Shown: in pieces, positions 29,728-32,616 of the stretch | Layout: each line of letters starts with the position of its first letter | How positions within the stretch are numbered: position 1 is the first letter of the stretch | NCBI GenBank assembly: GCA_963701085.1 | Contig: OY969561.1 | Location: 512,001 to 576,000, forward strand | Length of the DNA: 64,000 nt | Source of the DNA: an uncultured bacterium | GTDB lineage: Bacteria; Babelota; Babeliae; Babelales; Vermiphilaceae | Reading direction: 5' to 3' | Translations under genes and position numbers: made by a program | The notes under the pieces: generated by a model | The model's input: only the letters and a program-made list of their open reading frames with translations | What the model was told of the DNA's origin: nothing | Database searches by the model: none

Positions 29728-31548
29728 ATGAGTCAACGCATTCCCAATTTACAAGAATTTACCCCTGATAGAATCAGAAATTTTTCAATTATTGCCCATA
29801 TTGATCATGGCAAATCAACGCTATCTGACAGATTATTGGAAATATCAGGCACTATTACCGAACGGCAAAAAAAAGAACAATTTTTGGATAAACTCCAGGT
29901 AGAACGCGAACGCGGTATTACCGTTAAAGCGCAAACTGCATCAATGTTTTATGAATATAAAGGGGTAAAATACCTCCTTAACCTCATTGACACCCCGGGA
30001 CACGTTGATTTTACCTACGAAGTTTCCCGCTCATTATACGCATGCCAAGGAGCATTACTGCTCATTGATGCGGCACAAGGCGTCCAAGCGCAAACAATGG
30101 CCAACTTCTACCTTGCCTTTAATCAAGATTTGACCATTATTCCTATCATTAACAAAATTGATCTTCCCAATGCTGATATTGAAAAAGTAACCAATCAGTT
30201 TGTAAATCTATTCGATTTTAAAGCAGCGGAAGTCATTAAGGCATCAGCAAAGGCTAATATTGGTGTGACAGAGATCTTCCAAGCAGTGATTGAACGCATT
30301 CCAAGCTTGCACGTATCAGCCGATAAACCACTGCGCGCGCTGCTGTTTGATTCTTGGTTTGATGAATATCGCGGCGTAGTCTGCCTTATCGCACTCCATG
30401 ATGGCACCATCAAAAAAGGTGATATAATCTCTCTTGCACAAGCAAGCTCCAATTATGAAGTGCTAGAAGTAGGATTGATGTACCCAGAGCCAACGCCAAC
30501 CAACGTATTATATGCAGGCCAAGTTGGATACCTAATTACCGGTATGAAAACCATTAAAGAAGCCCAAATTGGTGATACCATTTACCACAACAAAAAACCG
30601 GTTGAACTATTTCCTGGCTTTAAACCAGCAAAACCAATGGTGTTTGCCGGCATATTCCCGGTGGATAGTGAAGAAATTGGCTTACTTGAGGAAGCAATTG
30701 AAAAATTAACACTCAATGATGCCAGCGTATCGGTGGAAAAAAAGACCTCTGCCGCTCTTGGTATTGGCTTCCGGTGCGGATTTTTGGGCATGTTACACAT
30801 GGAAGTGTTCAAGCAGCGCCTTGAACAAGAGTACCATTTATCAGTCATTGCAACCGCACCAAGCGTACTGTACCAAATAAAAATGGCCGGAACCGGCAAG
30901 CTTGTTGACATTGAAAATCCGTCAGATTTCCCTGAACGGAACTTTATTGAAGACATTCTTGAACCTATGATTGATGCAACAATCATCGTTCCCCAGCAAT
31001 ATCTTGGTAATGTTATTAAATTGTGCGAAGAAAAACGTGGCAGACAACAAAACCTTACGTACCTTGATGACACACGCGTCATCTTAAAATACCGCCTACC
31101 ACTTAATGAAGTTGCCATGGAATTTTTTGGTGATCTTAAGGGAATGAGCTCTGGTTATGCCAGTTTTGATTACGAATTTTCTGGTTATGAACCTGCAGAT
31201 TTGGTCAAAATGGATATTTTGCTCAACGGGAAAGCTGTTGACGCGCTTTCTATCATTATTCATAGAGATAGAGCCTTTTATATTGGTAGAGATCTCACGC
31301 AACGCTTGCAGAAGGTTATTCACCGCCAACTCTTTGAAGTTATCATCCAGGCAGCCATCGGAGCCAAAATTATTGCCCGGGAACGTGTTGCTCCATTGCG
31401 TAAAGACGTAACAGCAAAATGCTATGGTGGCGATATATCCCGTAAACGTAAGCTTCTTGAAAAGCAAAAAGAGGGTAAAAAGAAGATGAAACAGGTTGGT
31501 TCTGTTGAAGTACCCCAAGAAGCATTCTTATCCCTACTCAAGAAATAA
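29728..31548 (+). CDS. lepA: Elongation factor 4
   Basis: IRNFSIIAHIDHGKSTL, GFRCGFLG.LH, KCYGGDISRKRKLLEKQKEGK. Confidence 0.98.
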   Translation: MSQRIPNLQEFTPDRIRNFSIIAHIDHGKSTLSDRLLEISGTITERQKKEQFLDKLQVERERGITVKAQTASMFYEYKGVKYLLNLIDTPGHVDFTYEVSRSLYACQGALLLIDAAQGVQAQTMANFYLAFNQDLTIIPIINKIDLPNADIEKVTNQFVNLFDFKAAEVIKASAKANIGVTEIFQAVIERIPSLHVSADKPLRALLFDSWFDEYRGVVCLIALHDGTIKKGDIISLAQASSNYEVLEVGLMYPEPTPTNVLYAGQVGYLITGMKTIKEAQIGDTIYHNKKPVELFPGFKPAKPMVFAGIFPVDSEEIGLLEEAIEKLTLNDASVSVEKKTSAALGIGFRCGFLGMLHMEVFKQRLEQEYHLSVIATAPSVLYQIKMAGTGKLVDIENPSDFPERNFIEDILEPMIDATIIVPQQYLGNVIKLCEEKRGRQQNLTYLDDTRVILKYRLPLNEVAMEFFGDLKGMSSGYASFDYEFSGYEPADLVKMDILLNGKAVDALSIIIHRDRAFYIGRDLTQRLQKVIHRQLFEVIIQAAIGAKIIARERVAPLRKDVTAKCYGGDISRKRKLLEKQKEGKKKMKQVGSVEVPQEAFLSLLKK

Positions 31549-31569
31549 TTATCAACCCCCTGGACCGGG

Positions 31570-31823
31570 AAAAAGAGAAATCCCCAACTTAGACCGTTGG
31601 GGGACCCAACCTACGTAAGAACTACGGTTAATTTACGTGGAGGTGTTCTTGTAAACACCTCCACACCTCCATACACCAATGTTCCCTTGGATTCCTTAAC
31701 GGGTTAAAAGCAAGGTCGCTGATCAAACCTGCTCCTGATCCCGCGACGGTTTGATGGCGACCGAGCCCCATGTCATTTTAAGAAAAATGCCAGAAACTCG
31801 CTGGTAACCCTTCATGTACTTAT
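31570..31823 (-). ncRNA. Putative structured ncRNA, copy L, family unknown
   Basis: GC-rich and non-coding. Homologous to 32023..32252 in inverted orientation with compensatory changes. Ends in a hairpin plus U-tract on the minus strand. Confidence 0.7.
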
Positions 31824-31843
31824 TTAATTAATATTTTTATTTG

Positions 31844-32006
31844 TCCGCACCCTTCGATACACCACTACGTGGCACTCAGGGCGAGCGGAGAGAAAAAACT
31901 ATCAAGGGAAAAGAAATTAAATATCTCTTTCTCATCACTTTCGTGATTATTTCCCCCCGCTCGCCCTGAGTGTTTTTGTCTTCAAAAATGTATCGAAGGG
32001 TGCGGA
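31844..32006. repeat. Pair of inverted type A repeat arms between the two ncRNA copies
   Basis: tccgcacccttcgatac...cactcagggcgagcgg (31844-31888) and ccgctcgccctgagtg...gtatcgaagggtgcgga (31957-32006). Confidence 0.92.
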
Positions 32007-32022
32007 ACATCTTTTTTTAATT

Positions 32023-32252
32023 ATAAGTACATGGAGAGTTCTCGGCGGGTTTCTAGCGCTTCTCAGCGATATGGGGCCCGTCGCCATCAGCTCTTCTAAT
32101 CTTTGCTGATGGTGACCTGAGCCTAGAACTCGATAAGGAATCCAAGGGAACCATTGGTGCACGAGTGCAGAGGGGTTGCAAAACCCCTTTGCGAAAGAAT
32201 TCACTGCTGCAAAGCAGTGGGGTCCCCGGCGCCAAGCTGGGGATTAATTCTT
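32023..32252 (+). ncRNA. Putative structured ncRNA, copy R, family unknown
   Basis: Multiple stems whose mismatches are G-U only on the plus strand, a GCAA tetraloop and a terminal hairpin. Confidence 0.72.
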
Positions 32253-32409
32253 AAATTAACAGCATTGGGTCTTTTTTTACCAAGCAAAACATTCACCCAT
32301 AAGCCTTTTCCCTATCAAAGTTAATTCAATTCTTGATTTATTAATCCTCTTTGTAATAAATTGAAGGAGTAAATATATTATTTCCTCAAAACCAAAAGAA
32401 GGAGCCTTT

Positions 32410-32616
32410 ATGAAAAATCATAAAGAAAATCAACAACACCATGATGTCATCAAATCGAACGACCAACCAAAAAGCAGATATTTTGACACGAAAGCATGCC
32501 ACTGTGGCTGCGACACCTGCAATGAATGCACCAACAGTTGTGATACAAAAAAATGTTCATGCGGCTGTGAAAACTGTCATTGCAACGGAAACCCTGAAGG
32601 CCATTGTTGCGCCTAA
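32410..32616 (+). CDS. Small Cys/His-rich metallothionein-like protein
   Basis: Strong GAAGGAG RBS; CHCGCDTCNEC...CSCGCENCHC...HCC. Confidence 0.65.
   Translation: MKNHKENQQHHDVIKSNDQPKSRYFDTKACHCGCDTCNECTNSCDTKKCSCGCENCHCNGNPEGHCCA

Follow-up and report, generated by a model that had tools for sequence, protein, structure and literature searches.

Repetitive extragenic palindromic (REP) elements are imperfect palindromes of ~20–40 nt whose halves pair mutually and which are mobilized by REP-associated tyrosine (RAYT, Y1) transposases; they can also act as terminators or as stabilizers of mRNA. The bacterial orphan RNAs raiA, OLE, ROOL and GOLLD, which emerged from comparative genomics, are noncoding and lineage-restricted and have elaborate, covarying structures that include a pseudoknot. 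Here we describe an element that resembles each of these in part. It lies, as two divergently oriented copies named L and R, within a stretch of 64,000 nt (the window; positions 512,001 to 576,000 of contig OY969561.1, numbered here from its first nucleotide) from an uncultured bacterium of the Dependentiae, which are obligate intracellular parasites of protists with small genomes. The source genome of the window (G000) comprises 1.2 Mb and is 92.6% complete; other G and L numbers denote relatives and fetched loci. The best reading of our observations is that L and R belong to a new, Dependentiae-wide family of structured RNA elements of ~200–300 nt that normally occur as back-to-back divergent pairs. 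Compensatory changes preserve the fold of the outward-pointing strand, both from genus to genus and where loci are syntenic.

It is informative to set this family beside the systems that it recalls. Like the REP elements, bacterial interspersed mosaic elements (BIMEs) and REP doublets forming hairpins (REPINs) of Proteobacteria, it consists of multi-copy extragenic inverted doublets that prefer positions 3′ of genes and in the spaces that separate convergent ones. However, the arms here are ~250 nt long, have a multi-helix fold of their own with a covarying pseudoknot and frequently differ in type, and a search of G000 gave no Y1 transposase; on these grounds we rejected a REP or REPIN identity. 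The likeness to raiA, OLE, ROOL and GOLLD is one of elaborate covarying structure with a pseudoknot, noncoding nature and restriction to a lineage, whereas the present family is multi-copy, modular at its 5′ end and arranged in divergent pairs, properties that those RNAs are not known to have, and it matches none of the 4227 models of Rfam 15. Likewise, the CsrB/RsmZ sponge small RNAs (sRNAs) share with it purine-rich GGA sites, one of them in a hairpin loop, terminator-like ends and the presence of several paralogs. There are, however, only two such sites per RNA here, both of which switch to GCA in many members, and a search of G000 for CsrA (PF02599) gave no match although the control genomes were detected, so that a CsrA sponge was rejected as well.

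The two arms, 32010–32275 on the plus strand and 31555–31835 on the minus strand, align colinearly over 289 columns with 77% identity, and the blocks ATAAGTACATG, GTCGCCATCA, the 18-mer TAAGGAATCCAAGGGAAC, ATTGGTG and GGGTCCCC are identical in both, which bears out the colinear homology proposed in a first-pass annotation of the window. Folded as a single sequence, R reaches a minimum free energy of −106.9 kcal/mol (shuffles −74.3 ± 4.7, z −6.96) and L one of −92.8 kcal/mol (shuffles −73.8 ± 4.9, z −3.85), with 0 of 200 shuffles as stable in either case. The stems drawn in that annotation (P1, P2 with its inner stem, P3, the hairpin that follows, and a terminal hairpin with a T-rich tail) are found by folding each arm independently, inverted repeats between the arms and within each arm are picked up by a repeat finder, and RNAalifold on four copies gives double changes in 13 of 60 pairs. 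A further hairpin that had been assigned to both copies, CACTGCT-GCAA-AGCAGTG, is confined to R, and L has a weaker hairpin at the same place. The units, first placed at 32023–32252 (+) and 31823–31570 (−) with lengths of ~230–250 nt, are real but have slightly wider bounds, at about 245–265 nt. Their parts are listed below, where R1 is a covariance model built from four copies.

32018–32262 (+): copy R, whole unit from 5′ motif to T-rich tail; full-length R1 match, 224.2 bits, E 1.7e-65.
31562–31828 (−): copy L, whole unit; full-length R1 match, 271.8 bits, E 7.8e-80.
32023–32030 (+): conserved 5′ motif of R, ATAAGTAC, with an AT-rich hexamer resembling a −10 box just upstream; L counterpart 31816–31823 (−).
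32036–32131 (+): variable 5′ domain of R, a type A three-way junction; L counterpart 31701–31810 (−).
32036–32046/32121–32131 (+): P1 of R, with double changes in 9 of 9 pairs family-wide.
32047–32053/32073–32079 (+): P2 of R, from single-sequence folding and RNAalifold.
32080–32091/32105–32116 (+): P3 of R, from single-sequence folding and RNAalifold.
32132–32157 (+): conserved linker GATAAGGAAT and P4 hairpin (CCAA/TTGG, loop GGGAACCA) of R; L counterpart 31676–31700 (−).
32158–32192 (+): H-type pseudoknot of R, with L1 CGAGT and an A-rich L3; L counterpart 31637–31675 (−).
32158–32161 with 32177–32180 (+): pseudoknot pairing of R, 5′ strand TGCA with TGCA in the P5 loop.
32167–32176/32183–32192 (+): P5 stem of R.
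31672–31675 with 31650–31653 (−): pseudoknot pairing of L, TGTA/TACA.
32193–32257 (+): 3′ module of R; L counterpart 31570–31636 (−).
32193–32201 (+): A-rich linker of R.
32202–32219 (+): P6 hairpin of R.
32223–32243 (+): P7 hairpin of R, with double changes in 7 of 7 pairs family-wide.
32244–32257 (+): T-rich tail of R.
31844–32006 (no strand): central REP-like palindrome, outside the RNA family (inverted repeats I3 and I4).

Conservation of this fold was assessed on a family alignment of 99 R1 matches from 63 fetched sources. Standard pairs occupy 93.0% of 3443 helix cells, compared with 67.0% after shuffling and at most 46.5% with slid partners, and double changes occur in 58 of the 60 modelled pairs (4 of 4 in P4), with 0 of 500 shuffles reaching the observed value on four of five measures; the alignment was fitted to the model, and its members are related paralogs, so that these figures lean high, although the gap to the slid controls is still large. 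Within the modelled pairs, G-U or U-G combinations (285) far outnumber A-C or C-A ones (56), and hence the folding strand points away from the pair centre, as had been proposed from the two window copies. Compensatory changes are also seen between syntenic copies of different species, in P1, in P5 and in the pseudoknot (for example, between the priA-side copy of G000 and locus L061). By eye, a candidate helix P0 between the 5′ motif and the linker is clear in some groups (CCGUUU/AAACGG, ACCCC/GGGGU) and weak in the window type. An unbiased covariation scan of anchored segments was too noisy and was left unused.

The pseudoknot had been overlooked in the first-pass annotation, where one half of it, GCAGAGGGG/CCCCTTTGC, was read as a hairpin. 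Specifically, the four or five nucleotides after P4 are complementary to the P5 loop, and the two sites change together: the combinations include UGCA/UGCA, UGUA/UACA, UGUG/CACA, UGUC/GACA, UGCC/GGCA and UGCG/CGCA, as well as UAUC/GAUA, CAUC/GAUG, GGUC/GACC, CGCGG/CCGCG and UACGA/UCGUA. At least four contiguous pairs form in 81 of 87 usable members, compared with 23% (sd 4%, maximum 35% over 500 permutations) when partners are taken from other types, and the six non-formers include insertion sequence (IS)-truncated and misaligned copies. In a plain MAFFT alignment of 79 cores that is not fitted to any structure, columns 37–40 pair with columns 66–69 in 98.4% of 316 cells (74.8% shuffled, at most 57.7% slid). 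Double changes are present there in 4 of 4 pairs and in 97 cells where 29 are expected, and 0 of 500 shuffles match the percentage paired, the number of double-changed cells or the covariation score. Of the 81 formers, 45 carry an A-rich stretch (AGA or AAA) 3′ of the P5-loop strand. The conformational switch that had been suggested between GGAATCCA and TGGGGTCC is not supported; it is possible in 39% of 57 members, compared with 43% when partners are permuted, and no covarying, mutually exclusive pairing of the linker with P7, of the kind expected for an expression platform, was found among these members.

The family reaches far beyond the local duplication that was first assumed, and divergent pairs are its normal state. 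BLAST and R1 together give six copies in G000, in three divergent pairs:

Window pair: L at 31562–31828 (−) and R at 32018–32262 (+) of the window.
Pair B, between orn and priA: G000:1140379–1140594 (−) with 1140754–1141015 (+).
Pair C, next to pgi: G000:1163852–1164141 (−) with ~1164262–1164642 (+).

Pairs B and C each combine a type-A with a type-B copy and are inverted relative to one another; they lie ~23 kb apart and bracket a block of genes (G000:C1:1140379–1164642). Searching relatives with a covariance model, as the first-pass annotation had advised, recovered the family with R1 in 17 of 61 related genomes including G000. Of the other members of the genus, 9 of 10 carry it, as do 16 of 36 genomes in the family, and none of the 24 genomes from outside the family does. 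A core-only model built from 79 sequences (R2) gave matches in 22 of 151 genomes sampled from the order (9 families), and, with an E cutoff of 1e-4, in 27 of the 151 genomes of the phylum-level sample, with 0 to 23 copies per genome; all genomes of that sample are labelled as belonging to the same order or closer. An exact-pattern scan of metagenome contigs followed by R1 added 49 members, and divergent pairs are present both in those contigs and in distant families. The same kind of scan over a genome collection returned 39 stretches, mostly single matches in unrelated taxa at a number near chance by our own estimate. It includes a divergent double match (L120) and a single match (L114), both in records of Candidatus Babeliales bacterium, and the other records with double matches are labelled "uncultured bacterium" or Puia sp. 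Two pattern matches in viral contigs, neither of them confirmed by R1, were set aside as chance.

Across the 63 sources, the core model yields 102 matches, of which 68 form 34 divergent pairs and 34 stand singly; there is no tandem arrangement, and the one convergent adjacency lies between two neighboring pairs. Twelve pairs are only 1–11 nt apart between model ends and one more overlaps by 6 nt, while wider spacers usually hold a REP-like element. In the window, this element is the palindrome noticed in the first-pass annotation, and it is real: its arms at 31844–31861 and 31989–32006 are complementary at 18 of 18 positions, with an inner pair at 31873–31898/31947–31972. It is, however, an unrelated REP-like insertion, with 137 BLAST matches in G000, and it is missing from the 12 pairs spaced by 11 nt or less. 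This REP-like repeat frequently occupies the exact gap between paired copies, also in other species.

Within each unit, the part that is invariant across the order comprises the purine-rich linker, a P4 hairpin of 4–6 bp and the pseudoknot with P5, with linker and P4 the most conserved of all. The 5′ domain, which P1 closes, takes at least four forms across the family, and mosaic copies exist: in two G000 copies an unrelated hairpin domain stands in place of the type A three-way junction, with the 3′ half in common. The proposal of a three-way-junction 5′ domain joined to a conserved core is thus right as regards the core, but the junction is only one of several interchangeable 5′ domains. By eye, the linker and the P4 loop resemble two direct half-sites that switch together, either xAGGrAU with a GGAAC loop or AAGCrAU with an nGCA loop, which hints at one ligand for both, perhaps a dimeric one. 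The 5′ motif and the AT-rich stretch upstream of it recur in 94 family members, and a promoter role for that stretch can be inferred. At the 3′ end, an A-rich linker is followed by P6, P7 and a tail rich in T and C that contains TCTTA-like repeats, with one or two 3′ hairpins; tails have five or more T in 10 nt in 85% of 65 members, and linkers before P6 have five or more A in 9 nt in 80% of 87 members. A scan marks as terminator-like the P7 of L (31602–31582, −) and the antisense of the P6 of R (32219–32202, −). On paper, then, the 3′ module would end the outward RNA at P7 and incoming transcription of the opposite strand at antisense P6.

Some copies carry insertions (~30-nt palindromes and one IS) that are found only in the loops of P4, P5 and P7, as expected if the loops of a folded RNA are free. 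The ~30-nt palindromic element, of the GCCTGCCCTCCGTAGC... type, occurs in these loops in L022 (G000:1163845–1164655), L060, L072 and L073, and one copy of pair C holds three such insertions. An IS4-type element (L068:2582–4058, with a 424-aa DDE_Tnp_1 transposase and the terminal repeat CTTAAGTTGACAGCATTGG) lies inside the P5 loop of a copy from a related genome; in L069 and L070, copies are cut short by this terminal repeat, and a look-alike remnant of it is present 3′ of the R tail, at 32248–32269 of the window.

The genes around the copies are unrelated housekeeping genes (lepA, orn, priA, pgi). In the window, lepA (Pfam GTP_EFTU and LepA_C) ends at 31548, so that L is directed at its 3′ end, in agreement with the earlier statement that L has no downstream gene on its strand. 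Crude calls of open reading frames (ORFs) of at least 80 aa place the 3′ end of a convergent ORF opposite 70 of 94 outward ends, at a median distance of 27.5 nt, and put 24 upstream of a co-directional ORF (median 93 nt); for 4 others the fetched locus contains no ORF. Of 27 pairs with both neighbors known, 12 lie between convergent, 13 between tandem and 2 between divergent genes, and of 38 singletons, 20 follow a co-directional ORF and 18 have no co-directional gene upstream. At several loci both flanks are common between species, and in one case a flank is common with another genus, the flank proteins being 46–95% identical; this argues that much of the family is vertically inherited. The orn–priA site holds a pair in G000, one copy in G006, another hairpin-like sequence in G004 and an unrelated hairpin flanked by T-rich runs in G008, with priA following in the latter two; no priA match was found in the locus fetched from G001, and R1 with filters off found no copy in G001, G003, G004 or G008.

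A Cys-rich ORF of 68 aa without a Pfam family (32410–32616) lies 3′ of R on the same strand and has its own promoter-like site, TTGTAA-17-TATATT, at 32351–32379. Soil metatranscriptome contigs from four runs match it without differences, starting at 32385 or 32393, and it may encode a highly expressed, metal-binding-like peptide. Those contigs cover 32385–32500 and lepA-like pieces and nothing on 31511–31954 or 32029–32361, and none of the 24 sequencing runs listed contains half of the sequence words of the stretch (six soil metatranscriptomes contain 7%); neither result is informative on expression of the element. Elsewhere in G000, at C1:779143 and 781349, two solo P7-like hairpins with family-type tails on both sides stand outside the RNA copies (R1 gives a weak match at 779123–779321, E 0.36), and these hairpins may be what deleted pairs left behind or may serve as minimal bidirectional terminators.

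The first-pass annotation took the RNAs to be of unknown family, and our searches agree. No Rfam 15 model matches at its gathering threshold over the whole window; between 31400 and 32500, with E up to 10, there are 23 weak matches, none near threshold and the best on the central palindrome. Nothing in Rfam falls on the element in ten homologous loci, and one 271-nt copy gave 5 chance-level matches at E up to 10. Full-text literature searches, and term look-ups in the main texts of the Dependentiae genome papers PMC6561590 and PMC4776705, gave no mention of such RNAs in this phylum, and the only other noncoding RNAs named in the main text of the isolate genome paper are SRP RNA (ffs), RNase P RNA (rnpB) and tmRNA (ssrA) (PMC6561590).

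Several further identities were considered and rejected. Guide and template RNAs have their cognate protein gene in the genome, usually adjacent, and a TnpB reRNA, an IS110 bridge RNA and a retron noncoding RNA were excluded since PF07282, PF01548 and PF00078 have no match in G000 and the neighbors are housekeeping genes. The search of G000 for transposases and reverse transcriptases covered five families, namely PF07282 (Cas12f1-like_TNB), RVT_1, DEDD_Tnp_IS110, Y1_Tnp and DDE_Tnp_1, and gave 0 matches for each. Mimicry of the 16S rRNA 3′ end was dismissed as well: the core scores 18 against the 16S rRNA of G000 compared with 19.9 ± 2.4 for shuffles, and for the last 75 nt 24% of shuffles are as good. 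Candidate small peptides (from an ATG in the 5′ motif, or a TTG ORF at 32154–32324) fail by eye on a frame that is unconserved between copies, with indels in P5 and differing stops.

How might such an element work? We tentatively favor a pair of outward-transcribed, terminator-ended small RNA genes that would act in trans through their pseudoknotted core. Each unit would be its own small transcription unit, transcribed outward from the AT-rich pair centre, which would serve as a compact bidirectional promoter, and the transcript would be ended by the P7 hairpin and tail; the module of A-tract, P6, P7 and U-tract might also stop transcription arriving from a convergent neighbor. The most speculative step is that the RNAs would act in trans as scaffolds of a ribonucleoprotein (RNP), the pseudoknotted core and the two co-varying half-sites in linker and P4 loop binding a shared partner that is probably a protein, and the exchangeable 5′ domain giving each paralog its own specificity. 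A number of observations weigh against this account. The transcript, its start and its 3′ end are all predicted from sequence; a consensus scan gave no sigma-70-type promoter between the window copies, and no conserved −35 box is evident. The partner would probably be a protein, and CsrA, Hfq and ProQ were not found in G000. Copy number within one genus ranges from 0, in the 95% complete G001, to 12 in G005, G007 and G008, and the orn–priA site of G003 holds a solo P7-like hairpin with tails on both sides that reads as a bidirectional terminator; individual loci, and at least one species, can thus do without the family, which is what a selfish element would show. The covariation over the 99 homologs was counted on a model-fitted alignment of related paralogs and is inflated for that reason.

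It is also possible, if somewhat doubtful, that the pair is a selfish or mobile palindromic repeat (a giant REPIN, a BIME, or something like a miniature inverted-repeat transposable element, MITE) that spreads as a unit, its folds aiding mobilization, for example as single-stranded DNA, or keeping the insertion harmless. Such a repeat would account for the multi-copy but patchy distribution (0 to 23 copies, in 27 of 151 genomes), for the inverted-pair layout with conserved inverted termini formed by P7 and the tail, for mosaic copies with swapped 5′ and 3′ modules, and for a single site whose content ranges from a pair (G000) through one copy (G006) to a solo hairpin with both tails (G003), to which the two solo hairpins of G000 may be added; the preference for gaps between convergent genes likewise recalls REP elements. 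The first-pass annotation had named dispersed copies with target-site duplications and no covariation as the sign of MITE termini; the copies are indeed many and dispersed, but they covary, and by eye no flanking duplication was seen at 65 ends. Moreover, none of the five transposase and reverse transcriptase families tested is present in G000, many loci are syntenic across species and one across genera, which means that any spread is slow at best, and the covarying pseudoknot with its A-rich loop and multi-domain fold far exceeds what a transposon end needs. Within a pair, the arms often belong to different 5′ types, and this suggests that they are not selected for pairing with each other. 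The position of the copies invites another thought, namely that they are cis-acting modules at the ends of genes (a structured 3′-UTR, a bidirectional terminator or an insulator), transcribed by read-through, and through the partner copy in antisense, and not from a promoter of their own. We regard this as decidedly unlikely, even though the median of 27.5 nt to a convergent stop codon for 70 of 94 ends, an A-tract, P6, P7 and T-tail that terminate both ways on paper, the orn–priA hairpins of G003 (tails on both sides) and G008 (T-rich runs), which look like bidirectional terminators, the little room that a spacing of 1–11 nt leaves for a promoter, and the 20 of 38 singletons that follow a co-directional ORF all speak for it. 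For a terminator, P1–P5 and the covarying pseudoknot would be superfluous; no co-directional gene precedes L in the window or 18 of the 38 singletons, and the G-U asymmetry indicates selection on the outward strand only. A selfish inverted repeat, tolerated for the terminators that it supplies, and a purely cis-acting module both agree with the patchiness of the copy numbers, with the solo hairpins and with the location beside stop codons, but explain the covarying pseudoknot and the multi-domain fold less readily.

A compact pseudoknotted fold followed by a terminator-like hairpin, with a small Cys-rich ORF after R on the same strand, might instead suggest a riboswitch or another cis-regulatory leader, or a self-cleaving ribozyme, and we consider this highly improbable. 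The first-pass annotation had argued against a riboswitch from the course of L toward the lepA 3′ end, and the family extends that argument: a co-directional ORF lies downstream of only 24 of 94 outward ends, 70 face a convergent one, the 5′ domain is unconserved, and the proposed switch pairing is without covariation, so that a leader or riboswitch was rejected, while the Cys-rich ORF after R has the promoter-like site of its own mentioned above. As for ribozymes, the hammerhead has a conserved core around three stems with a cleavage site, and CUGAUGAG...CGAAA resembles that core; a minority of copies (L076:2489–2718, −, and L078:3484–3713, +) have CUGAUGAG 5′ and CGAAAG 3′ of P1, in a multi-helix junction. 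However, no hammerhead or other ribozyme model of Rfam matches these copies, even with E up to 10 on 271 nt, the two other stems (I and III) could not be drawn by eye, and most copies, both window ones included, deviate at the core-like positions; a hammerhead was accordingly rejected. The remaining readings need not be exclusive, and a mobile cassette of sRNA genes whose terminators were co-opted by neighbors would satisfy all of the data.

Whatever its function, this is a covarying, multi-copy pseudoknot family in the scarce intergenic space of about a fifth of the sampled genomes. Its strict divergent pairs, sometimes 1–11 nt apart, offer a natural test case for minimal bidirectional promoters, and their layout is also one for how repeats become useful to neighboring genes. 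The boldest possibility, which we think unlikely, is a new class of bacterial RNP RNA specific to the host-dependent Dependentiae, with up to some two dozen paralogs per 1–1.7-Mb genome, a pseudoknotted protein-binding core, a swappable 5′ specificity domain and obligate divergent pairs expressed from minimal bidirectional promoters; it would constitute a modular system (for example, guiding, sequestering or host-directed) without counterpart in model bacteria. A multi-copy covarying family in such small genomes points either to an unrecognized layer of RNA biology in this phylum or to a new structured selfish element that doubles as a terminator.

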